30,388 nucleotides of DNA from positions 1-30,388 of the forward strand of contig JBFWPD010000001.1 of assembly GCA_050250175.1 (NCBI GenBank), in the 5' to 3' direction. Source of the stretch: Vicinamibacterales bacterium. GTDB lineage: Bacteria > Acidobacteriota > Vicinamibacteria > Vicinamibacterales > CAVVIG01. Shown one piece after another: positions 1-20,045 of this stretch (its first letter is position 1; each line of letters starts with the position of its first letter). Below the pieces are notes generated by a model. The model was not told the DNA's origin, ran no database searches, and saw only the letters and a list, made by a program, of their open reading frames with translations. Position numbers and translations under genes: made by a program.

Positions 1-171
1 GAGGTCGAACGCCGCGCCACGCCATGTCACCGGCCGCGCAAGCGAATCACGCGTCGTCCCGGCAACTGGCGCGACGATGGCGCGCCGCGAGCCGGTCATC
101 CGGTTGAACAACGTGGACTTTCCGACGTTGGGGCGGCCGACGAGAACGACTGACGGGGTCCGTCTTGACAT
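1..171 (-). CDS. der: Ribosome biogenesis GTPase Der/EngA, N-terminal part (runs off the left edge)
   Basis: Not in the ORF track. Manual translation from ATG at 171: [42 protein letters not shown], with the G1 motif GRPNVGKS and G2 motif TRD typical of the first Der G domain. Confidence 0.88.
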
Positions 172-196
172 GCGAAAAGTGAACTTAGCCTCTGCC

Positions 197-225
197 TTGA
201 CAGTGTAAGTTCAAGTATTTATAGT
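197..225 (+). promoter_or_regulatory. Sigma70-type promoter for the HU/IHF gene
   Basis: TTGACA (197-202), 17-nt spacer, TATAGT (220-225) in an AT-rich gap; CAGGAG Shine-Dalgarno at 239-244 before ATG 254. Confidence 0.75.
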
Positions 226-253
226 GTTTACCAGCTTCCAGGAGCCCATAAGC

Positions 254-523
254 ATGATCAAGGTGGACATCGTCAACGAAGTGTCGCGCATTGCCGACAT
301 CACCAAGGTTAAGGCCGAGGTGGCCGTTGACGCCGTCTTCGATGCGATGCGCACGTCCATGCAGCGTGGCGAACGGATCGAATTGCGCGGGTTCGGTGTC
401 TTCCAGGTCAAACCACGGAAGCGCGGCATCGGCCGCAACCCACGGACTGGAAAGGAAGTTCGCATCCCGCCCGGCCGCACGATCCGGTTCAAGCCCGGCA
501 AGGATCTGCAGAATATCGGGTAG
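254..523 (+). CDS. HU/IHF-family nucleoid-associated DNA-binding protein (89 aa)
   Basis: IELRGFGVF and GRNPRTGKEVRIP...IRFKPGK signatures. Start moved from 224 to ATG 254 because of the SD sequence and family-typical N-terminus (MIKVDIV). Confidence 0.93.
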   Translation: MIKVDIVNEVSRIADITKVKAEVAVDAVFDAMRTSMQRGERIELRGFGVFQVKPRKRGIGRNPRTGKEVRIPPGRTIRFKPGKDLQNIG

Positions 524-580
524 CCGTTCGACGCCTTTCGGGCCGAACCACCCATCCCGGGCCGCAGTAATCTCTTTCCC

Positions 581-1540
581 TTGGAACCCGCACGCGATTT
601 CCCGACACCGCTCGCGCCGTTCGAGTACCTCCACCTGGCCCCCAGGCGGAAGTTCCAGGATCGCGTCTGGCAGCACGTGCTCCTGCTGGCTTTGACAATA
701 GTCACGACCACCCTGACGGGCGCAAACCACTACGCCTCGTTCCTGAGCGACCTCGGCGCGCGCGACGTCGACCTGACGACCGCGGAGTACATCCTCAACG
801 GCTTCTGGTACAGCGGAACAATCCTGGCGATTCTTGGCTGTCACGAGCTTGGGCACTATTTTGCCTGCCGCTATTATGACGTCGACTCGTCACTCCCCTT
901 CTTCATTCCCGCTCCACTGCCACTGACCGGCACCCTCGGAGCCTTCATCAAGATCAGGGAACCGATTCCGACCAAGCGCATGCTCTTCGACATCGGGATT
1001 GCCGGACCTATCGCCGGGTTCGTCATCGCGGTTCCAGCGCTCTTCGTCGGCCTGGCCCTGTCGAACGTCGTCGAGCTCGAGCCGTCGCCGAGCCTGCTGT
1101 CGCTCGGGGAGCCTCTGCTCTTCCAGGGCGTGGCGCAGCTCCTCTTCGGCACGCAGCCCGATCACCTCTCGATCAACCTGCATCCCGTGGCGTTCGCGGC
1201 CTGGTTCGGCCTGCTGGCGACGGCGCTCAACCTGTTTCCGATCGGCCAGCTCGACGGCGGACACATCTCGTACGCCGTACTGGGAAGAAAATCGTCGTGG
1301 GTCACGCTGGCAATGGTCATGGTCGCCATCGTGCTGACCTACTTCTCGAGCAGCTGGATTGTCTGGACGACGCTGATGATCGTCATGCTGCTGGTATTCG
1401 GACGCCACCATCCGAGTACCTCTGACGAAGACGAACCACTCGATCGGACTCGGATGATCCTCGCGGTTTTCGCCCTCGTGATGTTCGTCCTCTGCTTCAC
1501 GCCTGCCCCAATCGGGCCTTCGGATCTGTTGGGCGATTGA
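581..1540 (+). CDS. Site-2 protease family (M50) membrane zinc metalloprotease
   Basis: HELGH (HExxH) and NLFPIGQLDGG (NxxPxxxLDG) motifs within multiple hydrophobic segments. Confidence 0.9.
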   Translation: MEPARDFPTPLAPFEYLHLAPRRKFQDRVWQHVLLLALTIVTTTLTGANHYASFLSDLGARDVDLTTAEYILNGFWYSGTILAILGCHELGHYFACRYYDVDSSLPFFIPAPLPLTGTLGAFIKIREPIPTKRMLFDIGIAGPIAGFVIAVPALFVGLALSNVVELEPSPSLLSLGEPLLFQGVAQLLFGTQPDHLSINLHPVAFAAWFGLLATALNLFPIGQLDGGHISYAVLGRKSSWVTLAMVMVAIVLTYFSSSWIVWTTLMIVMLLVFGRHHPSTSDEDEPLDRTRMILAVFALVMFVLCFTPAPIGPSDLLGD

Positions 1541-1545
1541 CCTTT

Positions 1546-1711
1546 CGAGACACGAAGGCACGAAGACACGAAGACGCGAAGAATCCAGTCGTGGTGTCTC
1601 TCTGCTCTGAGGTTGTGGTTTCGTAGCTGGGCGTTTCCCGGCCTTGCCTGCTTTCGTTGTCTTCGTGTCTCCGTGCCTTCGTGTCTCGTGTTCGTTCTTT
1701 TTCGTGCCTCG
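1546..1711. repeat. Inverted-arm element built from GACACGAA-type octamer tandem repeats
   Basis: 1546-1575 (cgagacacgaaggcacgaagacacgaagac) is the reverse complement of 1659-1688 with one mismatch in 30; further TTCGT(G) units run to 1711. Lies between the convergent stops at 1540 and 1712. Confidence 0.92.
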
Positions 1712-3967
1712 TCAGCTCACTGACAACGGATCGACATCCACGATCGTGCGTCGAGCAAGATCGGCCCGCGCTCCGAGCACGGTCATGATCGCTTCGCGAA
1801 GCCGCCTGCGGTTGCTCCCCTTCAGCAGCAGCTGCGCCCGGTACTCACCCCGCAGCTTTCCAAGCGGTGCCGGCGCGGGGCCCAGCACGACGAACCCATC
1901 GGCCGTGCGGCGCAGGGTGTCGGCAATGACGGACGCATCCTCCATGGCCGCGCCGAACGTCCGCGCGCGGACGACAGCATTCACGAGCGCCACGGCAGGC
2001 GGATACCGCATGGACTTCCGGAAATGCAGCTCCCGCTCGTAAAAGGCGCGATAGTCCTGCCGGCACGCCAGCTCGATGCTGTAGTGATCCGGGTAGATCG
2101 TCTGCACGATTGCCTCGCCCGGACGTTCGCCGCGGCCCGCCCGTCCCGCCACCTGGGCGATCAACTGAAACGTCCTCTCTGACGCGCGAAAGTCCGCCAG
2201 GCCAAGGCCGACGTCCGCCGACACGACGCCGACGAGCGTCACCTTCGGAAAGTCATGTCCCTTGGCGATCATCTGCGTGCCTACCAGCACGTCGAGTTCG
2301 CCGTTCCAGAACTTCGTGAGCAGCGCGCCAGCGGCGCCCTTCCGGCGAACGGCATCGCGATCCAGTCGGGCAACCCTCGCGTTCGCCCAGAGACGCCGAA
2401 CCTCGGCCTCGACGCGCTCAGTACCAAACCCGGCCTGCTCCATGTACGGAGCGGCGCATACGGGACATCTGGCCGGGACACGCGTCGAGTAGTTGCAGTA
2501 GTGACACCGTGCGCGACGCGCGGCGCCCTCGCCATGAACGACGAGCGACACACTGCAGTTCGGGCAGTCCACGGTCCCGGCGCACTGGCGGCAGAAGACC
2601 GAGGTCGCGAAGCCGCGACGATTGAGCAGGATGAGCGCCTGCTCGCCGAGCGACAGCCGGATGTCGATCGCCTCTCTCAGTGGCCGGCTCAATACCACGT
2701 CCGGCCCCTCGCCGGCGTACTGGGTCCGCATGTCCACGACGGTCACGGTGGCCAGTGGACGATCAAGCACCCGTTTGGAGAGGACGACCCGTTCGTACCG
2801 GCCGCGATCGGCGTTGTGATACGTCTCCATCGACGGCGTCGCCGATCCGAGAACGACGAGGGCACCCGACCGGCTGGCCCGGACGATCGCGATGTCCCTC
2901 CCGTTGTAGCGCGGACTCTCCTCCTGCTTGTACGAGCCGTCATGCTCCTCATCGACGACGACCAGCCCCAGTCCATCGAGAGGCGCGAACACGGCGGATC
3001 GCGTCCCGACGACGACGTCCACGGCGCCGTTGCGGATTCGCTGCCACTGATCGTGCCGCTCTCCGTCAGACAGCCCGCTGTGCTGCACGGCGACGCGATC
3101 GCCGAAAGCCTGGCGGAAGAGCGATGCGATCGCCGACGTCAGGGCGATCTCGGGCACCAGCATCAGCACGGTCCGTCCTGACGCCCGCACGGCGTCGGCG
3201 AGACGCAGATACAGCTCCGTCTTGCCGCTGCCCGTCACACCGTGCAGCAGTGCCACGCGAAACTCACGCGCCGCCGCCAGCGTCTTCAAACGCTCGAACG
3301 CCTCCGCCTGCTCCAGCGTCAGCCGGCGTGCGGCGTCAAGCCGGCCGAGATCCACGCTGTCGACCGCGAAGGGATCTCTGTCCAGGCGTTCACGCTCGAT
3401 GCGGACGAAACCCTGCTTCGACAGGCGCGTCACAACGTCAGCGCTGATGCCCTCGCTCGCAAGAGCCGCGACAGGCACAGGCGCCGGCGAGGAGGCCAGC
3501 CACGCGAGCGTCTCACGCTGCCTCGCGGTCAGAGGTTTGCCAGCGGCCGCCGCAGCCGGTCGCGGGGGATCCCCGCCGGCGGCCAGCAGGCGACGGCCTT
3601 CGTCCGTTGCGAATGCGACCTGCCGTGTCTTGTGAGCGTCTGCGCGGACGCCGCGCGCCATCGGCGGCAGGACTGCCGTGAGCGTGTCGCCGATACCAGC
3701 CGCGTAGTAGTCGGCGGTCCAGCGTGCGAGCTCGACCACATCCGACGGCACGAAGGGCACGTCGTCGAGTATCTGCGTGACCGACTTCAGGACGGCCCCC
3801 TCCATGCCCTCCGCGCCAACTCCGGTCTCGACGACGATGCCGGTGACGGTACGGGAGCCAAGAGGCACGACCACCCGAGCGCCTACTGACGGCGGCGGTG
3901 CGGAATCGGGGACGAGGTAGGTGAGAAGATCGAGTGCGGGAACGGGAACAGCAACGCGGATCAGCAC
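1712..3967 (-). CDS. priA: Primosomal protein N' (replication-restart helicase)
   Basis: Walker A GVTGSGKT, DEEH box, four Cys pairs (CRQC, CPNC, CHYC, CPVC), GTQMIAKGHDF and QVAGRAGR motifs. Confidence 0.96.
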   Translation of the reverse strand: MLIRVAVPVPALDLLTYLVPDSAPPPSVGARVVVPLGSRTVTGIVVETGVGAEGMEGAVLKSVTQILDDVPFVPSDVVELARWTADYYAAGIGDTLTAVLPPMARGVRADAHKTRQVAFATDEGRRLLAAGGDPPRPAAAAAGKPLTARQRETLAWLASSPAPVPVAALASEGISADVVTRLSKQGFVRIERERLDRDPFAVDSVDLGRLDAARRLTLEQAEAFERLKTLAAAREFRVALLHGVTGSGKTELYLRLADAVRASGRTVLMLVPEIALTSAIASLFRQAFGDRVAVQHSGLSDGERHDQWQRIRNGAVDVVVGTRSAVFAPLDGLGLVVVDEEHDGSYKQEESPRYNGRDIAIVRASRSGALVVLGSATPSMETYHNADRGRYERVVLSKRVLDRPLATVTVVDMRTQYAGEGPDVVLSRPLREAIDIRLSLGEQALILLNRRGFATSVFCRQCAGTVDCPNCSVSLVVHGEGAARRARCHYCNYSTRVPARCPVCAAPYMEQAGFGTERVEAEVRRLWANARVARLDRDAVRRKGAAGALLTKFWNGELDVLVGTQMIAKGHDFPKVTLVGVVSADVGLGLADFRASERTFQLIAQVAGRAGRGERPGEAIVQTIYPDHYSIELACRQDYRAFYERELHFRKSMRYPPAVALVNAVVRARTFGAAMEDASVIADTLRRTADGFVVLGPAPAPLGKLRGEYRAQLLLKGSNRRRLREAIMTVLGARADLARRTIVDVDPLSVS

Positions 3968-3986
3968 GAGCCCCGGCGACCTCTGG

Positions 3987-4724
3987 TCAGCCGCCAGCGA
4001 GGAGCCGCTTCACGAGCTTCATGTCTTCCCAGACCTCCCGCTTCGACGCCGGGTTGCGGAGCAGGTACGCGGGATGGAACGTGGGGATCAGCTTTGCTCC
4101 GCGATAGTCGAAGATGCGTCCCCGCAACCGGGAGATCGGCTCCTCGGTCCGCAGCAGCGTCTGGGCGCCGAACTTTCCCAGCGCCACGATCACCTTGGGC
4201 TGGATGATGTCCACCTGCCGGAACAGGAAGGGCTCGCACGACGCCACTTCGTCGAACTCCGGATTCCTGTTCTGGGGTGGCCGGCATTTGATGACGTTGG
4301 CGATGTAGACGTCGGCCCTCGTCATCTCGATCGCCTCGATGATCTTCGTCAGCAGCTGCCCTGCGCGGCCGACGAAGGGCTCGCCCTGCAAGTCTTCGTC
4401 GGCGCCCGGCGCTTCGCCGACGAACATCAGGTCGGCGCTCGGGTTGCCGACACCGAACACCACCTGCGTTCGCCCGAGCGTGTGGAGCTTGCAGCGGGCG
4501 CAGTCAGGGCCGATCTCGCTCTTCAACGCAGCGAGCGCATCCACTTGCGAGACCGAGAAGGAGACCGGAACCGCGGCCGGCTCCGCAGCAGGAAGGGCAA
4601 CTGAGGCCGCTTCGGGGATCGCATCGTCGCCCTCGCGGCGCCGCCACGCCGGATCGCGACTCACGCCCTGTACCCCAAGTTCAGCGGCGAACCGGAGATG
4701 TTCCCGGAGCTGTTGGGGATCCAT
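3987..4724 (-). CDS. Uracil-DNA glycosylase, family 4 type (Fe-S)
   Basis: [16 protein letters not shown] and HPAYLLR motifs, with Cys ligands CARC, KCRPP and SCEP. Start placed at ATG 4724 ([10 protein letters not shown]); the longer track ORF extends into coaBC. Confidence 0.9.
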
Positions 4725-5940
4725 GCGACGCTGCGGCTGAGGCCTGGTGACGGGCGAGGAGCGCCTCGACGCGGTCGAGCACTTCGGCGGCCACCCTCGC
4801 CTTGGACTGTAAGGGAAGAGTCTCGTTGACGGCCTCTCCGACAATCGTGACGGCGTTGGTCTCGACGTCGAATCCGGCATCGGCCCGCGACACGTCGTTG
4901 GCCACGACCAGATCCACCTGCTTCGCCTGGCGCTTGGCAACCGCGCGCGCTACCAGGTCCTCGGTCTCGGCGGCAAACCCGATCAGGACAGCGGCGCCGC
5001 CCCTTGCGGCGCGTCTCGCGCCCACCTCGGCGAGGATGTCGCGCGTTCGCTCGAGCTCGAGCGTGCTGCCGGTTTCGTCCTTCGACACCTTCTGCGGTGA
5101 GTGCGTGGCCGGCGTGTAGTCGGCGACCGCGGCGGCCATCACGACGACATCGGCCGCGTCTGCCGATTCCATGACGGCGGCGTGCATCTCCGCAGCACTC
5201 CTGATGCGAACGATGCGGTCGACCGCCGGCGGCGTGACTGCCGTCGGCCCGGCCACGAGCGTGACCTGTGCGCCGCGGCGCGCCGCTTCTGCGGCAATCG
5301 CGAATCCCATCCGGCCGCTCGACCGGTTGCCGATGAACCGCACGGGGTCGAGATCTTCGAACGTCGGGCCCGCGGTGACGAGCACACGGCGGCCGCTCAG
5401 CGGACCACTGGGCCGGAGCATGGTGTGAGCCGCCGAGACGATCTCGTCGGGTTCGGCGAGCCGGCCCTTGCCGATCCATCCGCACGCCAGATAGCCCTCA
5501 CCAGGCTCGACAAACATCACGCCGCGCGCCGTCAGCGTATCGAGGTTCTTCCTCACCGCTTCGTGCGCGAACATCTGAGTGTTCATCGCAGGCGCCACGA
5601 GGACCGGCGCACGTGTCGCCGTGTACAGCGTGGAGAGGAAGTCGTCGGCGATCCCATTCGCCATCTTGCCGATGATGTTGGCGGTGGCGGGGGCGATGAG
5701 CAGCAGGTCGATCGACGATGCCAGGGCGATATGTTCGATGTCCGCGTTCGCACCCGACTCGAACTGGTCGGTAATGACGCGCCGTCTGGTGATCGCTTCG
5801 AATGTCAGCGGACCGACGAAGCGCGTGGCCGAGTGGGTCATGATGGCCACGACCTCGTGCCCGAGCTTCTGCAGGCCTCGGGCGACTTCCACCGCCTTGT
5901 AGGCGCCAACGCCGCCGGTGACGCCGAGAGCGATCAACAT
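4681..5940 (-). CDS. coaBC: Bifunctional phosphopantothenoylcysteine decarboxylase / phosphopantothenate-cysteine ligase
   Basis: N-terminal flavoprotein domain (APATAN, APAMN) and CoaB motifs [27 protein letters not shown]. Confidence 0.96.
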
Positions 5941-5978
5941 CTGGTAATCGGGGGATTTGGTGATCTGGTAACTGTGTG
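5939..5978. repeat. Short degenerate octamer array (ATCTGGTA-like)
   Basis: 8-nt period: atctggta atcggggg atttggtg atctggta actgtgtg, filling almost the whole rpoZ-coaBC gap. Confidence 0.55.
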
Positions 5979-5983
5979 AACTG

Positions 5984-6193
5984 CTACTCCTCGGGCACCA
6001 CAGCTTCGGGCGCAGGAATCACGATCGGAAGCCGCTCGACAGCTCCGGTCTGCACTTCCCTTTTTGCAATCGTCACCTTCTTGTGGTTGCCGACGTCCAC
6101 GCGGGGCGTGGATCCGGCGAGCAGCTGGCGGGCGCGTGCGCCTGCGGTGACGACAAACTCGAATCGACTGGGGGGCTGGCTTGGGTTGCTCAC
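5984..6193 (-). CDS. rpoZ: RNA polymerase omega subunit
   Basis: SRFEFVVTAGARARQL resembles the omega helix; position between gmk and coaBC; GTG 6193 preceded by AGGAG. Confidence 0.85.
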   Translation of the reverse strand: MSNPSQPPSRFEFVVTAGARARQLLAGSTPRVDVGNHKKVTIAKREVQTGAVERLPIVIPAPEAVVPEE

Positions 6194-6212
6194 GTTCTCC
6201 TCTTTCCTTCCT

Positions 6213-6875
6213 TCATCGCGCATCTTCGTTCACCGGGCGGCGGGCAAAGGTGTGGACCACGCTCTGCGCCACCGGCCGCATCCGTTCCATTCTGGCACGC
6301 TCGGCGAGGACGATGCCACGAAGCCGATCCACGGCGGCGGTCAGCTCGTCGTTGAGGACCACGTAGTCGTAGTCTGCGAACGAGGCGACCTCGTCGCGCG
6401 CCACCTGCAGCCGGCGCTGAATCGCTCCGTCGCTGTCCTTGCTCCGGCCCCGCAGACGCTGCTCGAGGACTGCGAATGACGGGGGCATGACGAACACCGT
6501 GATGAGCGGAATGCCGCTCCGGCGGACCTGGCGCGCCCCCTGGACGTCGATCACGAGGACCACGTCGTCGCCGGTCGCGAGCAGTGTCTCGGTGTCCGCG
6601 CGCGAAGTGCCATACAAGTTGCCGAAGACGTCGGCCCACTCGAGGAACTCGCCGCGATCGCGCCTGATCTCGAACTCGCTGCGGGACACAAAATTATAGT
6701 CGACCCCGTCGGTCTCGCCCTGGCGCGCGTCGCGTGAGGTGTAGGAGCGCGAGAGCCTGAGATGGGGCATCTGCTCGACGAGACGCTCGACGATGGTCGT
6801 CTTCCCGGCGCCGGACGGCGCGGAGACGATGAAGAGCAGTCCGCGTCCGCCCCTCCCCGACGCCTCACTCGACAT
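6213..6875 (-). CDS. gmk: Guanylate kinase
   Basis: P-loop SAPSGAGKTT, SYTSR..R.GE.DGVDYNFVS and GNLYGT motifs. Confidence 0.96.
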   Translation of the reverse strand: MSSEASGRGGRGLLFIVSAPSGAGKTTIVERLVEQMPHLRLSRSYTSRDARQGETDGVDYNFVSRSEFEIRRDRGEFLEWADVFGNLYGTSRADTETLLATGDDVVLVIDVQGARQVRRSGIPLITVFVMPPSFAVLEQRLRGRSKDSDGAIQRRLQVARDEVASFADYDYVVLNDELTAAVDRLRGIVLAERARMERMRPVAQSVVHTFARRPVNEDAR

Positions 6876-7758
6876 TCTGCACCTGCTCGCGCATCTTCTC
6901 GAGCTCCGCCTTCGCCGCGATGATCAATTCCGAGACCCGCAGGCCGTCCGCCTTCGAGCCCATCGTGTTCACTTCGCGATTCATCTCCTGCAGCAGAAAG
7001 TCGAGCTTGCGTCCGCACGGCTCCGGGCTGTCAGCCAGCGCCACCCAGTGCGACACGTGCCCTCGAAATCGTGCGGTTTCCTCGGAGATGTCCGACCGTG
7101 CCGCCACGCGCACGATCTCCTGCGCGACCATGGTCTCGTCGGCCTGAGAATCAGCACGCAACTCGCGCACGCGCGCTGCGAGACGCTCTTCGACGCCGGC
7201 GCGGCCCGCATCGGCAGCAACCGCGATCTGCTCGACGAGCGACGCGGCGGTGGTCCGCCGCTCGTCGAGATCCGCGCGAAGATGCTCGCCCTCCCGCAAT
7301 CGCATGACGTCGAGCTCGACGAGCGCGGCATGGAGCGCACGGCGGGCCTGCGTGGCCAGCTCCTCCGCGAGCGACTCGTCGGCATCGGCGGGGCGTTCGC
7401 GAATTGTCAGGGCCTGCGGCATCCGCACGAGGTCTCCGGGGGTCAGCACGCCGGCGACGAGTCCGCGGCCTCGTGCACGCTGCAGCGCAGCCTCGAGCGC
7501 CTGCGCGAACTCCTCGTTGAGCTCGACCTCCACGCCGGGCGGCTGACGCAGCTGGAGCGAGATGGCGACTTCTACCCTGCCGCGCGCGACTCGCTTGGCG
7601 ACAAGCGCCCGGACGTCGCTCTCAATGGCCGCCAGCATCGACGGCAGCCGCAGCTGGAGATCGAGATGACGATGATTCAGGGATCTCACGGTTACGCCGA
7701 CGGTCGCGCGGTCCGCTTCGTCGGTCACTGCGGCAAATCCGGTCATGGACTTGATCAT
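6865..7758 (-). CDS. yicC: YicC/YloC family endoribonuclease
   Basis: N-terminal MIKSMTGFA and C-terminal GRKLDFLLQEMNREVNTMGSK; conserved position upstream of gmk. Confidence 0.92.
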   Translation of the reverse strand: MIKSMTGFAAVTDEADRATVGVTVRSLNHRHLDLQLRLPSMLAAIESDVRALVAKRVARGRVEVAISLQLRQPPGVEVELNEEFAQALEAALQRARGRGLVAGVLTPGDLVRMPQALTIRERPADADESLAEELATQARRALHAALVELDVMRLREGEHLRADLDERRTTAASLVEQIAVAADAGRAGVEERLAARVRELRADSQADETMVAQEIVRVAARSDISEETARFRGHVSHWVALADSPEPCGRKLDFLLQEMNREVNTMGSKADGLRVSELIIAAKAELEKMREQVQNVE

Positions 7759-7762
7759 GGAC

Positions 7763-7886
7763 GGCTTCAGGCTCCGGGCTACTTCGGGCTTCGGGCTTCG
7801 GGCTACAGGCTTCGGGCTTCGGGCTTCGGGCTTCGGGCTTCGGGCTTCAGGCTTCAGGCTTCAGGCTTCAGGCTACAGGCTTCAGG
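7763..7886. repeat. Heptamer tandem array (GGCTTCG / GGCTTCA / GGCTACA), 17 units
   Basis: Counted directly: 17 consecutive units from 7763 to 7884, one of them 10 nt (7777-7786). GGCTTCG-dominated block first, GGCTTCA-dominated block second. Confidence 0.97.
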
Positions 7887-7894
7887 ACGGCACG

Positions 7895-9670
7895 CTACTG
7901 GGTGCTCGCAACTGGCTTCAGGCGCTCCGATGCCTTCCGGTTTTCGAGCAGCTGCATCTGATACAGGAGCGCATAGGTCCCGGACGGCCGCGCCAACAGC
8001 TCGTCGTGACGGCCAATCTCCACGACACGGCCCCGTTCGAGAACGATGATGGCGTCGGCGCGGCGAATCGTCGACAGCCTGTGCGCGATCACGAAGGACG
8101 TGCGATTGAGCAGCAGGTTGGCGAGGGCGTTCTGCACCAGCAGTTCCGATTCAGCGTCGAGCGCCGACGTTGCTTCATCCAGAACGAGAATCGGCGCGTT
8201 CTTGAGCAACGCACGCGCGATCGCAATCCGCTGACGCTGACCGCCTGACAATCGCTGCCCCCGCTCGCCGATCAACGTCCCATACCCCTCGGGCAGATGC
8301 TGGATGAACTCGTGCGCATGCGCAGCACGTGCGGCCGCTTCGACCTCCTGCGGCGTCGCTCCATCCGCGCCGTACGCGATGTTCGCCGCGACGGTGTCGT
8401 CGAAGAGCACCGTCTCCTGCGTGACCATGCCGATCTGCTTCCGCAGCGACGCGAGCGTGACGTCACGCAGGTCCACTCCGTCGATCAGGATGCTGCCGGC
8501 GCTGACGTCGAAGAACCTGGGCAACAGATTGACGAGCGTCGTCTTGCCGGCACCGCTGCGTCCGACGATCGCGATCATCTGTCCGGCCCCGACCCTGAAC
8601 GACACGCCACGGAGAATCCGCGCGTGCGACTCGTCGTACCCGAAGGCCACCTCACGGAACTCGATGGCGCGCGTGAACGGCGCAAGAGCCTGTGCGCCAG
8701 ACCGCTCCCCCACCTCGGTGTGTGTATCGAGCATCTCGAAAATACGCTCGGCCGACGCGATGGCTTGCTGCAGGTTCGCGTTCACGCGACTGAGCTTCTT
8801 CGCCGGGCCGTACATCAGGAAGAGCGCCGCGATGAACGACGTGAACTCACCGGTCGTGAGCTGGCCCGCCGCGATCTCGCGCGTCCCGTACCAGAGGGCG
8901 CCGGCCATGCCGAACCCTCCGAGGAGCTCCATGAGCGGCGGCAACGTCGAGAGCGTTGCCGTCACTTTCATGTTCGTGCGGTACAGGTGCGCGCCCGCCT
9001 GACTGAACTTGGCGGTTTCCTTCTGCTCCGTGCCGAAGGCCTTGACGATGCGATGTCCCGCCAGCGTTTCCGCGCTGATGTGTGAGAGTCGCTCCCGGGC
9101 TTCCTGGCTGCGCCTCGTCGTCCTGCGCACTCGCTGCCCGAGCCGCACGAGCGGATAGACGACGAGAGGGGCGCTGATCAGACAGAACACGGCGAGCCGC
9201 GCGTCGTAGTAGAAGAGGAGCGCCGCAAAGCCGACAATAGCGAGCGATTCCCGCGCCAGATCGCCTGCGGTCTCCGACACGACCTGCTGAATCTGGCTCA
9301 CGTCGTCGTTGATCCGCGACATGAGCTGGCCTGTCGTCCGCGTCGCGAAGAAGCCGGCGGACTGTCCGAGCACATGGCGATACAGAGCGTTCCGGAGGTC
9401 GAGGACGACGCGCTGTCCGACGTCGGCCATCAGGTAGGACGAGACATACGAGCCGGCGCCCTTCAGCACGTAGGTGCCGACGATGAGCCAGGCGACGAGG
9501 CTGAGCTCCTGCTGGTTGGGAAGGACGCTGTCGAAGATTGGCTGGATCAGCGCCGCCAGACCGGCCGATCCGGCGGCATACATGAGCATCCCCAGGACGG
9601 CGAGGGCCAGGCGACCTCGATACGGTCGCGCATAGCCGAACAGCCGACGGAGCGGTGAGGGCTCATGCAC
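7895..9670 (-). CDS. MsbA-like ABC exporter (TMD-NBD half transporter)
   Basis: Six-TM N-terminal domain, Walker A GRSGAGKT, signature LSGGQRQR, Walker B LVLDEATSALD, IAHRLST. Substrate not determinable from sequence. Confidence 0.9.
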   Translation of the reverse strand: MHEPSPLRRLFGYARPYRGRLALAVLGMLMYAAGSAGLAALIQPIFDSVLPNQQELSLVAWLIVGTYVLKGAGSYVSSYLMADVGQRVVLDLRNALYRHVLGQSAGFFATRTTGQLMSRINDDVSQIQQVVSETAGDLARESLAIVGFAALLFYYDARLAVFCLISAPLVVYPLVRLGQRVRRTTRRSQEARERLSHISAETLAGHRIVKAFGTEQKETAKFSQAGAHLYRTNMKVTATLSTLPPLMELLGGFGMAGALWYGTREIAAGQLTTGEFTSFIAALFLMYGPAKKLSRVNANLQQAIASAERIFEMLDTHTEVGERSGAQALAPFTRAIEFREVAFGYDESHARILRGVSFRVGAGQMIAIVGRSGAGKTTLVNLLPRFFDVSAGSILIDGVDLRDVTLASLRKQIGMVTQETVLFDDTVAANIAYGADGATPQEVEAAARAAHAHEFIQHLPEGYGTLIGERGQRLSGGQRQRIAIARALLKNAPILVLDEATSALDAESELLVQNALANLLLNRTSFVIAHRLSTIRRADAIIVLERGRVVEIGRHDELLARPSGTYALLYQMQLLENRKASERLKPVASTQ

Positions 9671-10676
9671 GAGACGTCGCGGCTCCGTACCCTCCAGGAT
9701 GCGACTGCTGCCAGTCCCAGGCCGTGCGGACGATCGCCTCGAGATCCGTGAAGCGCGGCTGCCACCGGAGTTCGGTGTTCGCCTTGTGGGGCGCGGCGTA
9801 GAGGACGGCGGGGTCGCCCGGACGCCGCGGCGCCAGACTCGCGTGGATGGGACGTCCGCTCACCTGCTCGACCGCGCGAATCACTTCGCGAACCGAGTGC
9901 GGCTGGCCGGTGCCCAGGTTGTAGGCCGCCGATCGCTCCGTTTCGACGAGCGCCGCGAGCGCCTTCACGTGGGCGTCGGCCAGATCCGTCACGTGAACGT
10001 AGTCGCGCAGGCAGGTCCCGTCGGGCGTCGGATAGTCGTCGCCGAAGATCGACACCCCCGGTCCTCCCATGGCGGCCTCAATGGTACGGGGAATCACGTG
10101 GATCTCGGGCGAATGATCTTCGCCGAGCTCGCCCTCGGGATCGGCCCCCGCGGCGTTGAAGTACCGCAGGATCGTCGAGTGGATCCCGTAGGCCCGCTCG
10201 AAGTGAGGCAGCGCCCGCTCCACTGCCAGCTTGGTCTCGCCGTAGGCGTTGATGGGCCGCTGCGGATGGGTCTCGGCGATCGGCGTCTCGACAGGCTCGC
10301 CGAAGGTCGCGCACGTGGACGAGAAAACGAAGTGGCGCACCTTTTCGGCGGCCATCGCCGCCAGCACCCCGAGCGTTCCCAGGACGTTGTTGTTGTAGTA
10401 GCGCGCCGGTTCCCGCACCGACTCGGCCACGTCGAGCAGCGCGGCAAAATGCATGACGGCGGAGATCCGGTGCTTCCGCAGGGCGTCGCGCACCTGGTTC
10501 ACGTCGGCGATGTCGCCTTCGACGAGCTCTCCATACCGGACGGCAGGGCGATGTCCGGACGAGAGGTTGTCGAAGACGACTACACGATAGCCGCCGCGAC
10601 TGAGCGCCTTGCAGGCGTGGCTGCCGATGTAGCCGGCGCCGCCCGTCACAAGAACGACAGCCGGCTCAGCGTCCAA
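9663..10676 (-). CDS. galE: UDP-glucose 4-epimerase
   Basis: [14 protein letters not shown] (YxxxK), LRYFNAAGA and TCLRDYVHV motifs. Confidence 0.93.
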
Positions 10677-11961
10677 TGGAGAAGTACGTGAAGCCCAGCG
10701 CTTGCATGTGCTCGGGCGAATAGATGTTTCGACCGTCGAACACGACCGGCGCGCGCATCAACTGACGCATCCTGCCGTAGTCCGGCTCCCGGAACTCGTT
10801 CCACTCGGTGACAACGGCGAGCGCGTCGGCGCCTGACAGGGCTTCGTAGCTCCGCTCGGCAAGCTTGATGCGATCGCCGAAGATCCGGCGCGCGGTTTCC
10901 GTGGCTTCAGGGTCGTACGCGTTGACGCTTGCGCCCAGCTCCAGCAGCCTCTCGATGATCGAGATCGCGGGCGCCTCGCGCATGTCATCGGTGCGCGGCT
11001 TGAACGCGAGTCCCCACAGGGCGATCGTCTTTCCTCCCAGATCCGGGAAGTGCTGCTGCATCTTCTCGACGAGCCGCAGCTTCTGCCGGACGTTCACTTC
11101 CTCGACGGCCTTCAGGATCCGGAAGTCGTAGCCCTCGTCGCTCGACGACTTGACGAGTGCCTTGACGTCCTTCGGGAAGCAGCTGCCGCCGTACCCGACG
11201 CCTGGGAAGAGGAATGAGGTGCCAATCCGCCGATCGGACCCGATGGCCTTGCGCACCTGATCGACGTCCGCACCGACCCGCTCGCACACATTCGCGATCT
11301 CGTTCATGAAGGAAATGCGCGTCGCGAGAATCGAATTCGCCGCGTACTTGCTCAACTCGGCGCTGGCCGTGTCCATCATCATGATCGGCGCGCCGGTTCG
11401 CGTGAAGGGTCCGTAGAGCTCCCGCATGATCTCGGCCGAGCGCTGGTCGTCGCAGCCGATCACCACGCGATCCGGCTTCATGAAGTCGTCGATTGCGGCC
11501 CCCTGCTTCAGGAACTCGGGGTTGCTCACCACGCTGAAGGGGTGCGTCGTCTCGGACGCGATGGCCGCACGGACCTTCCTGGCGGTACCGACCGGGACGG
11601 TGCTCTTGTCGACGATCACGGTGTATTTCTCGAGGGCCTTGCCCACCGCGTGCGCCACGGCCAGGACGTGTCCGAGATCGGCTGACCCGTCTTCTCCCTG
11701 TGGCGTCCCGACGGCGATGAACACGATGTCGGAGGCCCGGACGGCGCCAGGCAAGTCGGTCGTAAAGCTCAGGCGCTCCTCGTCGAAGTTCCGCTTCACC
11801 ATTTCCTCGAGGCCAGGCTCGTAAATCGGCATCCGTCCGGCCTCGAGCATGGTGATCTTGGACTCGTCCTTGTCGACGCAAATCACTTCATTGCCGTTCT
11901 CGGCGAGGCAGGCGCCCAGCACGAGACCGACGTATCCGGTCCCCACGACGGCGATTTTCAT
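10666..11961 (-). CDS. ugd: UDP-glucose/GDP-mannose dehydrogenase family protein
   Basis: GTGYVG Rossmann motif, SNPEFLKQG, catalytic [21 protein letters not shown]. Confidence 0.92.
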
Positions 11962-11969
11962 AGCCCAAC

Positions 11970-12019
11970 AAGGTACTGATTTGGAAGGACTTACGCAAGA
12001 GCGACCCCTGTGGTAACGT
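11970..12019. promoter_or_regulatory. Back-to-back sigma70-like promoters (ugd and GT4 operons)
   Basis: Minus strand: TTGCGT (11998-11993), N17, TACCTT (11975-11970), N8, ATG. Plus strand: TTACGC (11991-11996), N17, TAACGT (12014-12019, with TGn extension), N6, GTG. Confidence 0.55.
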
Positions 12020-12025
12020 CCCTCC

Positions 12026-13186
12026 GTGCGTGTACTGATCGACTACAGAGCCGCTCTGAAGAGTCGGAGCGGCGTGGGCGAGTACACACACGGACTCGTC
12101 TCCGCGCTGGCGAGTCGCTTCCCCTCGAACGAAGGCCACCAACTCGACCTGACTATTTTTTCGAGCTCCTGGAAGGACCGGCTGGCAGTCGCTCCGGAGC
12201 TCCAGGGCGTGAGCGCGGTGGACCGGCGGATCCCTGTCGCAAGTCTCAACCTGGCATGGCATCGCCTCGGCTGGCCTCCAGCAGAAGTCGTGGCCGGCGC
12301 GCGCTTCGACGTCACGCATTCCCTGCACCCACTCGTTCTGCCCGCGCGGGCGGCCGCGCACGTGGTGACCGTCCACGATCTCAACTTTCTCGCTCATCCC
12401 GAACGGACCCGCGCCGAGATCCGGCGCGACTACCCGGCGCTCGCACGCGCGCACGCACATCGCGCCGATCGGGTCATCGTGGTCTCGCGTTTCACCGCGA
12501 GCGAAGTGGCAGGCCGGCTCGAGGTCCCGGCTGGGCGAATCTCGGTCTGCTCGCCGGGGGCTCCCGCGTGGAGTCCGCGACCGGACGCACCTGTGAACGG
12601 CTATGTCCTCTTTCTTGGTACGCTCGAGCCTCGCAAGAATCTCGGGACGCTGCTCGACGCCTGGGCCCGTCTCGTCGCGGCGGCGAACGGCACCCGGACA
12701 ATGCCCGAGCTGGTCCTGGCCGGCCAGGCACCTCCCGAAGCCGGTCCGCTGCTCGACCGATTGAACCGGCAGCCCCTCGCGGGTCGCGTGAGACACATCG
12801 GGTATGTGCCACCGGATGAGCGGCGCGCCCTGTACGACGGGGCGCGTCTGCTGGTGCAACCGAGCTTCGAGGAGGGCTTTGGCCTTCCGGTACTCGAGGC
12901 CATGACTCTTGGCGTCCCGGTCGTGGCGGCAAACCGCGGAGCGCTGCCCGAGGTCCTCGGCGATGCGGGACTCCTCGTCAATCCTGTCGATGACAAGGAG
13001 ATGGCAGCGGCCATCAGCAGGCTCCTGAGCGACGACAGTCTGGCGACGTCGTGCCGGACGCGCGGGTTCGCACAGGCCGCGCGATACCGGTGGAGTGACA
13101 CGGCCGATCGTGTCTATGAAGCCTACCGGATCGCCATCGAGGAGCGCGCGCGGCGGCTCGGCCAGGATCGATGCGCATCGGCATAG
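12026..13186 (+). CDS. Glycosyltransferase family 4 (GT-B)
   Basis: LGTLEPRKN and [14 protein letters not shown] (Ex7E) motifs. Confidence 0.92.
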
Positions 13187-14256
13187 ACGCCCGGGAGATC
13201 TGCGGGCAGTCGACGGGCGTCGGACGCTGGCTGGGGATGCTGCTTCGCGAGTGGCTCTCCGCCGTGCCGCCCCTGTCACATGAACTGATCCTGTATGCCC
13301 CGGAAGCGGTGTCTCTACCCACGTCGGCTTCACCCGTCACGCAGCGGATCGTGCCTGGCGGACGAGGAACGGTCTGGGAGCAGATGGCTCTCCCGCGTGC
13401 GGCAGCAAAGGACGCGCTCGACGTGTTCTTCGCGCCCGCCTACACCGCGCCTCTCCAGCTGAAGGCACCGGCCGTCGCACTCATCCACGACGTCTCGTTC
13501 ACGGCCCACCCTGAATGGTTCACTCCACGCGAGGGCGTGCGCCGGCGGCTGCTGACCGAGCGCACGGCGCACATGGCCTGCGCGGTCGTCACCGTCTCGG
13601 AATTTTCGCGTCGCGAGATCGTCGACTTGCTCGGAGTGGACGCCGGGAAGGTGCACGTCGTGCTGCCCGGGATCGAGCCATTGCCGTTACCGGCGAGCGC
13701 TCGGGAGGCGAGGGAGCCTCGAGTGCTCTATGTCGGGTCGATCTTCAATCGCCGCCGCATTCCGGCGCTGATCCGGGCCTTTGGCGGCGTGGCGCTGCGG
13801 CACCGCCGCGCGTCGCTCGACATTGTCGGCGACAATCGCACGTATCCCTTCCAGGACGTGCGCCAGTGCATCGCCCACGAAGAGCTCGACGATCGCGTAC
13901 GCTGGCATCAGTACGTCACTGACGATCAGCTCGCGGGCTTGTACCACTCGGCGAGGGCCTTCGCGTTCCTCTCTGAATATGAAGGGCTCGGCATGACGCC
14001 ACTCGAGGCACTGGCGTCCGGCGTGCCACCGCTGCTCCTGGACACCGCTGTCGCGAGGGAGAGCTGCGGCGATGCCGCGCTCTACGTCCCACCCGACGAC
14101 ACACGCGCGGCCGGCGACTGCCTGGACCGCCTCCTCTTCGACGAGGCGACCCGGGGACAGGTGCTCTCGGCAGCGCCGGGCACACTGGGACGCTACAGCT
14201 GGCCGCGCGCCGCGCGTGAGGTGATGTCGCTCCTCGAGGGCTGCGCAACACGATGA
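13171..14256 (+). CDS. Glycosyltransferase family 4 (GT-B)
   Basis: MRIGIDA start, VVTVSEFS, LSEYEGLGMTPLEA (Ex7E) motif. Confidence 0.9.
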   Translation: MRIGIDAREICGQSTGVGRWLGMLLREWLSAVPPLSHELILYAPEAVSLPTSASPVTQRIVPGGRGTVWEQMALPRAAAKDALDVFFAPAYTAPLQLKAPAVALIHDVSFTAHPEWFTPREGVRRRLLTERTAHMACAVVTVSEFSRREIVDLLGVDAGKVHVVLPGIEPLPLPASAREAREPRVLYVGSIFNRRRIPALIRAFGGVALRHRRASLDIVGDNRTYPFQDVRQCIAHEELDDRVRWHQYVTDDQLAGLYHSARAFAFLSEYEGLGMTPLEALASGVPPLLLDTAVARESCGDAALYVPPDDTRAAGDCLDRLLFDEATRGQVLSAAPGTLGRYSWPRAAREVMSLLEGCATR

Positions 14257-15059
14257 CGACACCAGCGTTGTCGATCGTCATCGTGAGCTACAACGCACGG
14301 CAGGTGCTCGAGGGCTGCCTCCAGTCGCTCTCTGATGCGCCGCCGTCGATCAGTCACGAGATCGTCGTCGTGGACAACGCCTCGAGCGACGGCAGCCCGG
14401 AGGCCGCAGGGCGATGGTCCTCAGTACGAGTAATCCCGGCAGGGAGCAACCTCGGGTTCTCCGCAGCCAGCAACCTCGGGATTCGCGCGACGACCGGCGA
14501 CCTCCTGCTTCTCCTGAACAGCGACACCGTCGTCCCCCCGGGCGCCATCGACGCGCTCGTTGCGACTCTGCGGCAGCATCCCGATGTTGCCGTGGTCGGT
14601 CCGCGCCTCCTGAACGGCGACCGGCAGCCCGAGCTGTCGTTTGGCCGGATGATCAGCCCGTTGAGCGAGTTCCAGCAGCGACGGCTGATGAAAGCCGTCG
14701 AACGCGGAGACGCGCTCACGCTCAGCCGTATCGACACCATGACGCGCGAAGAACAACGTCCCGACTGGGTGAGCGGCGCGTGCCTGCTCGTCCGGCGCGC
14801 CGACGCGGAAGCCGTCGGCCTGCTCGACGAGCGCTATTTCATGTATACGGAAGACGTCGACTTCTGCGCGGCCATCCGGGCGCGCGGGCGGCACATTCTC
14901 TTCTCGCCGGAGATCGAAGTCGTCCATCTCAAGGGTCGATCGGTGGCCAGCGCTCCTGAAGCGACGCGGGCTGCCTACGAACGCAGTCACCTGGCGTTCT
15001 ACGAGAAGCACCATCCCCGCCTGGTCCCCTTCCTCCGCCTGTTCCGCCGTCTGACGTAG
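14253..15059 (+). CDS. Glycosyltransferase family 2 (rhamnosyltransferase-like, GT-A)
   Basis: IVIVSYN, VVDNASSDGS, LLLLNSD, WVSGACLLVRR and YFMYTEDVD motifs. Confidence 0.9.
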   Translation: MTTPALSIVIVSYNARQVLEGCLQSLSDAPPSISHEIVVVDNASSDGSPEAAGRWSSVRVIPAGSNLGFSAASNLGIRATTGDLLLLLNSDTVVPPGAIDALVATLRQHPDVAVVGPRLLNGDRQPELSFGRMISPLSEFQQRRLMKAVERGDALTLSRIDTMTREEQRPDWVSGACLLVRRADAEAVGLLDERYFMYTEDVDFCAAIRARGRHILFSPEIEVVHLKGRSVASAPEATRAAYERSHLAFYEKHHPRLVPFLRLFRRLT

Positions 15060-15282
15060 CGCTACCCGGCCTCACAGGCGACACGAATCTCGGGGCAGGC
15101 TAAACTCATCAGTAGCACCGAGCTCACGACGTTGGTGCCGTCTATCTGATGGGCGCGGAATAGAATCAGCCCCTCTTACTTCGCGCCTCGACGCAGTCTG
15201 GTTGTGCTAAACGCCTGCTGGCATGGTGCGCTCGCGGCTGAATCGCCGCGCACAGTGCGCCATACCGTAGGGAAAGGGATCG

Positions 15283-16353
15283 ATGTCACGCTGGTTGAAG
15301 TGGGCCGCGCTTGTAGTCGTTGCACTCGTCGTGCTGTTGGGAATTGCCGCGGTTGCTGTCGTCGGCATTCGTCCGTTCATCGGGCCGCGGGCGAGGCCGC
15401 TCACTGACCGCACCTTCGAAGTCACTGCGGCCCGCCTGGCGAGAGGCGAGTACCTGGCCAACTCCGTCGCCGGCTGTCTCGCGTGTCATTCGGAACTCGA
15501 CTGGGACGCTCCGGGATTCCCCGTCAGAACCGGCACTGAGGGTGGCGGGCACAACTGGGCCGACGAGGACCTCCCATGGATCACGGCCGCCAACCTGACG
15601 CCTGACACCAACACCGGTATCGGCGCGTTGAGCGACGATCAGGTCGCGCGCGCGATCCGCGAAGGCATTCACCGATCGGGCCGCGCGCTCTTTCCCATCA
15701 TGCCCTACGGGCAATACAAGTACATGTCCGACGAGGATCTCGCATCCATCGTCGTTTATCTCCGCACGCTCGAGCCACTGGCGACGAATCTGCCCCCGAC
15801 CGAGATCCCCTTTCCTCTCAGCCGGTTGATCAACAACGTGCCTGAGCCGATCACGGAGCCGATTCCCGAACCCGATCGCGGTAATCGCGTCGAGTACGGT
15901 GACTATCTCGTGCGGCTCGGCGTCTGCCGCGACTGCCATACGCCGATGGACGCTCAGGGCAACTCGCTGACCGAGCTCGATCTGGCTGGGGGCAACGTCT
16001 TCACCGGCCCCTTCGGCAGAGTCTCGAGCGTGAACATCACGCCTGATCCGAGCGGGATTCCGTACTACGACGAGCAGATCTTCATCACGATGATGCGGAC
16101 GGGCATGGTCGGCGCCCGCAAGATCCACGACCGGATGCCCTGGAAGATCTTCGGCACGCAGACGGACGAAGACCTGTCGGCCATCTTTGCGTATCTGCAG
16201 ACGATTCCCGCGGTGGACCACCGCATCGACAACACGCAGCCGCCCACGCTCTGTCCCCGCTGCGGACTCGAACACGGCGCGGGCGATCAGAACGAGCCGC
16301 TCGAGACGGCTGTGGCGCACGACGACGCGCCGCTGCTTGCGCAGGGTCAGTGA
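15283..16353 (+). CDS. Membrane-anchored or exported dihaem c-type cytochrome
   Basis: N-terminal hydrophobic segment, two CxxCH motifs (CLACH, CRDCH), paired NLTPD/NITPD and IMPY/RMPW half-repeats. Confidence 0.85.
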   Translation: MSRWLKWAALVVVALVVLLGIAAVAVVGIRPFIGPRARPLTDRTFEVTAARLARGEYLANSVAGCLACHSELDWDAPGFPVRTGTEGGGHNWADEDLPWITAANLTPDTNTGIGALSDDQVARAIREGIHRSGRALFPIMPYGQYKYMSDEDLASIVVYLRTLEPLATNLPPTEIPFPLSRLINNVPEPITEPIPEPDRGNRVEYGDYLVRLGVCRDCHTPMDAQGNSLTELDLAGGNVFTGPFGRVSSVNITPDPSGIPYYDEQIFITMMRTGMVGARKIHDRMPWKIFGTQTDEDLSAIFAYLQTIPAVDHRIDNTQPPTLCPRCGLEHGAGDQNEPLETAVAHDDAPLLAQGQ

Positions 16354-16724
16354 ACCGTGCTGGATGCCGCTGGAGCCGGTGACGCCAGCACGCGGCGGAT
16401 CATCTGCTCGAGCGCGCTCTGCTCCATGTCAATCGGACCGGCCACTGCGGCCCCCATCGTGATCTCGATCGCGATGACCACGCCGCCTCCCTCGTACGGG
16501 TTGACGATCCAGCTGAGACCGCGAAGCGCGATGTGACGCTCGGCGTCCCCGGGATGTTTCATGCGGTGCATGGCATGCAGCATCCCCTCGAGCACGGTCC
16601 GGACGTCATCGTCCGTCCAGGCGCGGGGCTCTCGTTGCAGGCCGCCAATCGATTCGGTGGTGGCGTGATGATCGCCGCGGAGCCAGACGTCAACAGGCAA
16701 TGTCATGGGAGGGACTGTAATCAT
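16347..16724 (-). CDS. Hypothetical protein (~120 aa); start may be 16706
   Basis: Protein-like composition with a plausible beta-alpha-beta pattern (VDVWLRG, WTDDDVRTVLEGML, LSWIVNPY, VVIAIEI); fills the gap between cytochrome c and the repeat. No family recognised. Confidence 0.65.
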   Translation of the reverse strand: MITVPPMTLPVDVWLRGDHHATTESIGGLQREPRAWTDDDVRTVLEGMLHAMHRMKHPGDAERHIALRGLSWIVNPYEGGGVVIAIEITMGAAVAGPIDMEQSALEQMIRRVLASPAPAASSTVH

Positions 16725-16868
16725 GAATTAGGTATTGGGAATTGGGAATTCAAGAGGAGCTTCACGCCCGGGGCTCGACGATCTCATTTCAACGTTCAGC
16801 CCAATATCCATTTTCAGCATTCATTCCAACATTCCATTCTCAATTCCCAAGTGCCTAACTCCTAATCT
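16725..16868. repeat. Degenerate heptamer arrays (GGGAATT / AATTCCC type) in inverted orientation
   Basis: Left: gaattag gtattgg gaattgg gaatt (16725-16750). Right: ccattct caattcc caagtgc ctaactc ctaatct (16834-16868), with more degenerate TTCAGCA/ATTCC units from about 16810. Arms are imperfectly complementary. Confidence 0.8.
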
Positions 16869-18988: not shown

Positions 18989-18994
18989 TCCGCG

Positions 18995-19070
18995 ATTATG
19001 ACACTCGCGTGCGGCACGCTCACCTGGACCCGCCCGCTGGTTCGCCGCAAACGATCAGGTGCAGTAAGAT
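18995..19070. promoter_or_regulatory. Divergent -10 elements for the yyaL-like gene and pfpI
   Basis: Minus: TGT-CATAAT (19000-18995), N6, ATG 18988. Plus: TAAGAT (19065-19070), N7, ATG 19078. No good -35 matches. Confidence 0.5.
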
Positions 19071-19077
19071 TTCCCGC

Positions 19078-19626: not shown

Positions 19627-20045
19627 CACGAGACACACGAAAACGGACAGAGACTCGGCACGAAGGCACGAAGAGAAACACGAAACACACGAAAAAGACA
19701 CGAAACACACGAAAATACGAAACACACCAAAGGTGGGACACACACAGACCTGCCAACGACTACAGCGCCGCCAAAGACGCGATCAGACTGATCTTCAGGA
19801 ACCGCTGCCGCCTTCTCCCATTCCGGCCCTTCTGTAAGCGCTGGTTCCTTGCCTTCGCGGCGCTCGTCGCCTTCTCACAGGAGGAGCGGCACCTGGAACA
19901 GGTGACAGGAAGCGCGTGGTGCCAGGGCCTCTGGATCTGCGACCAAGCTCGCAGGCTTCGTGAGTTTCGTACTTCGTGGAGTTTCGTGTCTTCGTGCTTC
20001 GTGAGTTTCGTGTTTCCGTGTTTCGTGTGTTTCGTGTCTTCGTGA
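19627..20045. repeat. Large inverted-arm element: (CACGAA)n left arm, ~225-nt core, (TTCGTG)n right arm
   Basis: Seven exact CACGAA in 19627-19730 and nine exact TTCGTG in 19957-20044; perfect 20-bp inverted repeat 19695-19714 / 20021-20040. Spans exactly from the pfpI stop to the yihY stop. Confidence 0.93.

Follow-up and report, generated by a model that had tools for sequence, protein, structure and literature searches.

What is a long hairpin made of tandem octamers doing between two genes that face each other stop to stop? We analysed this locus, which separates the convergent genes for a site-2 protease (Peptidase_M50) and the primosomal helicase PriA, in a window of 30,388 nucleotides (the whole stretch of DNA considered here). 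The sequence comes from a 4.15-Mb MAG of 594 contigs (G000; 65% GC, 95% complete), in which the window is contig C1, and the relatives of its priA belong to Vicinamibacterales, phylum Acidobacteriota. The answer that we favour, with reasonable though not strong confidence, is that the element is a gene-less copy of the GRCACGAA palindromic family, the complete form of which encloses a gene for a GxxExxY protein of the PD-(D/E)XK type. It looks like a selfish element, similar to REPs or to rRNA intervening sequences (IVS), and not like a purpose-built terminator.

An inverted-repeat search and direct reading confirmed the arms reported in the initial annotation: 30 nt each (1546-1575 and 1659-1688), 29/30 positions paired (97%) and 83 nt between them. 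The location between the convergent site-2 protease and priA genes was confirmed as well. TRF delimited the 8-nt tandem arrays at 1548-1582 and 1653-1691 (features in Table 1). The first 12 nt of the left arm (1546-1557) are CGAGACACGAAG, a terminal motif shared with the gene-bearing cassette described below, and the terminal motif of the right arm is CTTCGTGTCTCG (1677-1688). Beyond it, degenerate units (1689-1706) make up a T-rich tail on the + strand. The spacer (1583-1652) had no match elsewhere in the genome or in the fetched loci, no ORF and no Rfam match; Rfam gave no match at the gathering threshold in the window and none at E ≤ 1 on 1450-1800. RNA folding predicted a long stem from either strand (-79.8 and -74.2 kcal/mol, z = -8.4 and -8.3), and the sole arm mismatch, A.C on the + strand, becomes G.U in the priA-sense RNA. 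The element was spanned with 0 differences by two independent Logan assemblies from landfill metagenomes (X1 and X2). An exact 222-nt Logan contig (1590-1811) came from an RNA-labelled run, which shows only the presence of the sequence in that library and gives no read ends.

Table 1. Positions of the window element, its neighbours and the related loci (window coordinates unless a contig is named).
Feature	Position	Strand	Description
Site-2 protease (Peptidase_M50) gene	581..1540	+	Stop codon 1538-1540, 5 nt ahead of the element
Left arm	1546..1582		4.4 tandem GRCACGAA octamers
Spacer/loop	1583..1652		Unique sequence
Right arm	1653..1706		TTCGTGYC array; core stem partner 1659-1688
priA (primosomal helicase) gene	1712..3967	-	Stop codon 1712-1714
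Second family member in the window	19627..20045		Between pfpI-like and yihY-like genes; CACGAA and TTCGTG arms around a unique spacer of 235 nt
PF05635 genes	G000:C27:6500-6775, C229:2957-3247, C381:1047-1337, C41:228-530, C480:3045-3332		Loci L135-L139

The 16-mer at 1551-1566 has an identical copy at 19659-19674, as already noted in the initial annotation. With up to 2 mismatches, 7 matches were present in the window versus 0.05 expected from shuffles, and the whole genome holds 17 copies at approximately 15 loci, not two sites only. At least 3 ACGAA-type units were found at about 26 loci, and the gene-less copies number about 25. The family was 2-3 fold enriched in convergent gaps and beside stop codons, and hairpins were present in tandem and divergent gaps too. 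Family membership of the window element, together with the 19.6-kb element, is directly supported by these matches, as the initial annotation had inferred for the two. The two elements had also been described as having the same polarity; this is true but automatic for a palindrome, which shows one arm order whichever strand is read. What carries information is the fixed order itself, with the CACGAA array first and the TTCGTG array second at about 15 two-armed loci versus 2 weak opposite cases.

Arms of the family copies have 2-9 units, while the spacers range from 11 to approximately 520 nt and are mutually unrelated, indicating that the copies did not arise, in the manner of MITEs or REPINs, by duplication of entire elements. 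The unique spacers rule out a MITE or a REPIN built on a conserved core. No target-site duplication was recognisable: the flanks show at most a 1-nt repeat, which is uninformative. Mean complementarity between the arms of one locus was 0.53, compared to 0.60 with the arms of other loci (permutation p = 0.97), and no arm-arm covariation was found among the family copies of this genome. Arms are no better matched within than between loci, so the 29/30 pairing reflects the shared octamer and not selection on this stem; the earlier proposal that near-perfect complementarity implies selection on pairing, or recent conversion, was not supported. Inside the left arm of the 19.6-kb element, the X1 and X2 contigs carry a 2-bp AG insertion variant (19694), which is a small-scale length polymorphism of an arm.

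One CACGAA locus, G000:C25:5665-6363 in the mazG/comEC gap, has a 523-nt spacer that holds a 131-aa ORF. This ORF is the sole PF13366/TIGR04256 ('GxxExxY') PD-(D/E)XK gene of the genome, and hmmsearch --max detected no PF13366-like frame in G000 outside C25. The motif CGAGACACGAAG is located at both outer ends of this cassette and at both ends of the window element (1546 and 1688). The link to a gene-bearing cassette was missed in the initial annotation. Like the octamer-armed cassettes, the window element consists of two inverted arrays of 8-nt units with the purine-rich array first, and its unit and terminal motif match those of the gene-bearing copy in the same genome. Its loop harbours neither a GxxExxY gene nor a remnant of one, and we classify it as non-autonomous. 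No trace of the nuclease gene was detected in the gene-less copies or near priA in 90 loci.

The gene and the inverted arms are associated in relatives as well. In 41 related genomes, 22 of the 30 PF13366 loci had 330-nt flanks sharing at least 7 inverted 9-mers. When the same test was applied to the genes of G000 with 200-nt flanks, 14 of 2263 (0.6%) passed, and those checked by Pfam were housekeeping genes lying between arrays by chance. Reading through the loci revealed that the matching flank stretches are mostly purine-rich octamer arrays (CACGAAG, ACCCGAAG, CACGGAGG, CACAGAGR, CGCAGAGA and CGCGGAGA). In 7 genera from two families, cassettes with CACGAAG-type arms occupy one and the same convergent gap, that between mazG and comEC (series from loci L095, L103, L110, L113, L115, L121-L123 and L130-L134). 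This gap contains a decayed gene and one arm in G007, arms and no recognisable gene in G002, and it is empty (10-60 nt) in G004, G006, G016 and G024. Some genomes thus carry the cassette as an insertion at this orthologous site and others lack it. Since the CACGAAG-armed cassettes share one such site, the clustering of CACGAA-armed proteins in the tree reflects orthology. The mazG-locus cassette is vertically inherited across genera, and the gene-bearing form is not visibly mobile. Its octamer was kept across genera while MazG is 49-62% identical to the G000 MazG; consequently, it behaves unlike neutral spacer DNA.

Next, we compared the distribution of the gene with that of the dispersed arrays. 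The CACGAA dimer and PF13366 were both present in 20 of 41 relatives and neither was found in 17, while 3 had the dimer only (1-5 hits) and 1 had PF13366 only. A reversed-pattern control for the dimer gave 0 in each of the 41 genomes. Taking one genome per other family, 3 had both, 13 had neither and 0 were discordant (1 chance in 560 if independent, calculated by hand). Across 200 sampled genomes of the phylum, the gene was present in 16 of the 22 dimer-holders compared to 72/200 overall, and in 9/10 genomes with at least 3 dimer hits. The G003 genome, which is 64% complete, had 130 CACGAA dimers but PF13366 fragments only. The link between the gene and the gene-less arrays is a strong correlation and not proof, as kin are non-independent and several of the MAGs are incomplete. 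The mazG-locus cassette of G011, whose arm unit is ACCCGAAG, served as a test of prediction. Among the 41 genomes the dimer of this unit was found only in G011, with 11 hits, 9 of them outside the cassette. The arm unit of a genome's cassette matches, and predicts, its dispersed gene-less arrays. The CRCRGAG arm type was abundant in G011, G019, G017, G032 and G008, with zero hits in G000.

Residues D75, E85 and K87 are invariant in 22 GxxExxY sequences, and the AlphaFold (AF2) model has a pLDDT of 93.8. Searching the PDB by sequence revealed no relative, and searching it by fold revealed weak PD-(D/E)XK matches only (such as AddAB, Cas4 SSO0001 and R2 endonuclease, E ≥ 0.014), so that no specific activity can be assigned to the protein. 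The PADLOC defence models did not match the nuclease. PF13366 carries the label 'Unknown' in the literature, and multiple transfers across divisions have been noted for it (PMC3424549). The correlations described above suggest that the GxxExxY protein may act on, or recognise, the arms.

The gap between priA and the site-2 protease gene (S2P) was then followed in relatives. We examined 80 Vicinamibacterales priA loci (L011-L090), and the gap was measurable in 49. In 22/49 it was shorter than 40 nt and had no hairpin. Many other gaps carry hairpins with tandem-repeat arms of GCAGAATT, TTCAGAT, GGTCCGAAA, GGTTCC, CCGTTCGGA, CAGAGAA or GACACAAA; overall, at least 8 different repeat units make up the hairpins of this gap in Vicinamibacterales, and many gaps have none. 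CACGAA hairpins with unrelated spacers were found in two of the gaps (L035 and L043). As the gaps are either empty or filled with other units, the site can do without a hairpin and its hairpins turn over rapidly, and any host function of the window element must be dispensable too, given the 22 gaps without one. None of the 80 relatives had an orthologous copy of the window element in the gap.

The alternative that survives best, which we nevertheless consider unlikely, is a structure that the host evolved to terminate transcription in both directions or to stabilise mRNA 3' ends, lacking a U-tract, locally assembled from slippage-prone units and unrelated to the nuclease. The stop-to-stop position between convergent genes and the strong stems on both strands favour it, and so does the general distribution of arrays in the genome. 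TRF detected 517 arrays of period 6-10 in G000, and the period-7 and period-8 arrays were mostly intergenic, though 81% of the genome is coding (rough gene calls). Arrays were densest in convergent gaps (0.81 per kb), less dense in tandem gaps (0.44) and sparsest in divergent ones (0.23), and their median distance was 21 nt to a stop codon versus 63 nt to a start. An inverted partner was present within 700 nt for 195/336 intergenic arrays, with the left arm usually G-rich and the right arm C-rich; given this purine-first order, the pyrimidine-rich arm is the 3' arm in both transcripts. Consensus intrinsic-terminator patterns were not enriched in window positions 1-20000 (7 vs. 9.6 in shuffles), and this lineage may rely little on hairpin-plus-U-tract terminators. 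Moreover, both termination and stabilisation have been reported as activities of E. coli REPs (bioRxiv 10.64898/2026.03.23.713779). However, 22/49 orthologous gaps are too short for any hairpin, and hairpins also stand in tandem and divergent gaps. The exact octamer and terminal motif are common to about 25 loci and recur across genera, which is not expected of a local origin, and the family tracks PF13366.

The window element resembles Rho-independent terminators, bidirectional ones included, in its stable stem right after convergent stop codons and in the T-rich tail that follows on one strand. Its stem measures 30 bp and has an interior of 70-83 nt, in contrast to the short GC-rich stem and 3-8 nt loop of the canonical form, and the sequence is a dispersed repeat. 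The initial annotation had stated that no U-tract adjoins the stem. This holds for the priA strand but not for the + strand, where 10 T occur in 1689-1702 with T5 at 1698-1702; this tract starts 3-10 nt away from the stem (canonical 0-2 nt). Its conclusion that the hairpin is not a classical intrinsic terminator was supported, both by the long interior and by the terminator scan, which did not call the 1546-1688 site.

A neutral microsatellite, arising through replication slippage and now and then an inverted duplication where non-coding DNA permits it, and having neither a function nor dedicated machinery, is improbable in our judgement. It would account for the differing unit numbers in the arms of one locus (8 vs. 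3 on C114), the lack of locus-specific covariation, the rapid turnover at orthologous sites and the 2-bp indel polymorphism of the 19.6-kb copy. If slippage acted independently at every locus, the units should differ from locus to locus, yet a handful of units make up most of the arrays, the arm order is fixed and the terminal motif is conserved. Nor would it explain the persistence of the octamer at the mazG locus despite the divergence of MazG, or the match between the exclusive family of one genome and its cassette arms (G011).

Even less probable, to the point that we give it little weight, is a site acting at the DNA level, namely a cruciform or a protein-binding array (nucleoid protein or gyrase, along the lines proposed for REP/BIME) relieving supercoiling between convergent genes. 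The palindrome could extrude a cruciform, positive supercoils build up in convergent gaps, and the REP/BIME elements of E. coli bind gyrase and IHF. By contrast, a period of 8 bp is out of step with the helical repeat, the analysis yielded no candidate for a binding protein, and copies are equally common after single genes. An accidental palindrome formed by each convergent gene's own 3' array was rejected, as complete hairpins occur in tandem gaps and cassettes in tandem context have both arms.

The reading as a gene-less copy of a cassette family raises the question of the other repeat families of the genome, whose dominant units are AAGCCTG, AAGATTG, ACCAGATG, GRCACGAA and AAGGGCGGG. G000 has five genes for PF05635 ('23S rRNA IVS protein', a four-helix bundle), all of them with flanking STR arrays. 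Four of the five are bracketed by inverted arrays, each of another unit (CAGGCTT/AAGCCTG, TGAAGAT, ATTTGGTC/ATCTGGTC and GGAAGGGCGGG); next to the fifth, on C480, one flank carries a GGTCCTNNG array and the other is cut off by the contig end. The flanking units are those of the other major families (AAGCCTG, AAGATTG, ACCAGATG/ATTTGGTC, AAGGGCGGG and GGTCCTNNG). With the PF05635 and PF13366 genes lying inside arrays of the main units, every major family of the genome has one gene-bearing copy. The AAGCCTG dimer occurs 62 times in G000; this heptamer family does not track PF13366 in relatives, and in G000 it brackets a PF05635 gene instead. Each STR hairpin family might be propagated or kept uniform by the protein of its gene-bearing copy (GxxExxY for CACGAAG, the IVS protein for the heptamer and nonamer families), a generalisation that we put forward tentatively and would not yet bet on.

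Further arrays were observed along the way. A GGCTTCR heptamer array lies beside the yicC start (window 7763-7886), and its unit is that of the arms of the C27 PF05635 cassette. At 16725-16868 of the window there is a GGGAATT/AATTCCC heptamer hairpin, close to the GGGAATC inverted arrays of Xanthomonas (PMC4692102). At G000:C190:2300-2731, a 143-aa ORF with no Pfam match has a complete AAGATTG-family hairpin on each side.

Among known systems, the Xanthomonas GGGAATC arrays are the closest in form, with the cyanobacterial STRR similar, while REP/RAYT and the ORF-bearing rRNA IVS are the closest in logic. Xanthomonas genomes have 70-75 inverted pairs of GGGAATC heptamer arrays each, with the G-rich array first, located approximately 28 nt from the upstream ORF and differing in length between species (PMC4692102). 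Both these arrays and the STRR are intergenic tandem units of 7-9 nt with variable copy number, often in inverted pairs. Unlike them, the window unit is an octamer without G-tracts, so that no quadruplex is possible, and a gene-bearing master copy has not been reported for them. REP/REPIN-RAYT systems likewise consist of multicopy extragenic palindromes near gene 3' ends, enriched between convergent genes, with one gene-bearing copy flanked by its own repeats and with genome-specific repeat families. However, the partner of the CACGAA family is a PD-(D/E)XK protein, its arms are tandem arrays of variable length instead of a fixed 20-40 nt palindrome, and its spacers are not conserved. The RAYT/Y1 transposase (Y1_Tnp, PF01797) had 0 matches in G000 (95% complete).

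The IVS of 23S rRNA (Coxiella and Leptospira; S23p/PF05635 cargo) share with the window element terminal inverted repeats and a stem of approximately 28-30 bp with one mismatch, and with its family the possibility of a small gene in the loop, the sporadic distribution and the gene-less forms. In Coxiella, the terminal stem of the IVS measures 28 bp, contains one mismatch and is cut mid-stem by RNase III (PMC4990558). The differences are that the window element stands between the Peptidase_M50 and priA genes and not in rRNA helix 25 or 45, and that the CACGAA family has tandem-octamer arms, a PD-(D/E)XK cargo and dozens of gene-less copies per genome. None of the papers searched describes a cassette combining a gene with octamer arms.

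These comparisons suggest how a gene-less copy might arise and persist. A sequence-specific process coupled to the cassette would generate the arms, disperse them or keep them alike, with a logic like that of REP/RAYT. The unique spacers would fit either local slippage starting from a short palindromic seed or loops that serve as landing pads. Transcripts of both convergent genes probably fold into an RNase III-type stem at the window element, as judged from folding and from the Coxiella precedent, and the RNase III gene (rnc) is encoded in G000. Transcribed from either gene, the 30-bp stem would act like the stem of a 23S rRNA IVS, both as a double-stranded substrate of RNase III and as a roadblock. 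Both mRNAs could then be terminated or shortened by cleavage or by the roadblock, and antisense transcription would be kept from reading through. If both mRNAs are trimmed in this way, gene-less copies right after stop codons would be tolerated, and perhaps mildly beneficial, as has been reported for the REPs of E. coli. The high array density in convergent gaps and the short median distance to stop codons speak for this reading as well.

To our knowledge, intergenic tandem repeats of 7-9 nt, such as the STRR and the GGGAATC arrays of Xanthomonas, have gone for decades without an assigned origin or function. If each hairpin family is indeed served by the protein of its gene-bearing copy, these families would be a new class of mobile palindromic element, and both orphan protein families would have a substrate. 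The STRR-type repeats, the Xanthomonas-type heptamer repeats and the rRNA intervening sequences could then be one phenomenon. A real partnership between protein and arms would amount to a REP/RAYT-like system running on different enzymes. It would also explain the hairpin-filled intergenic regions of Vicinamibacterales, which are ignored by annotation pipelines and at which short-read assemblies often break. In practice, these hairpins should not be taken for gene-specific regulators.
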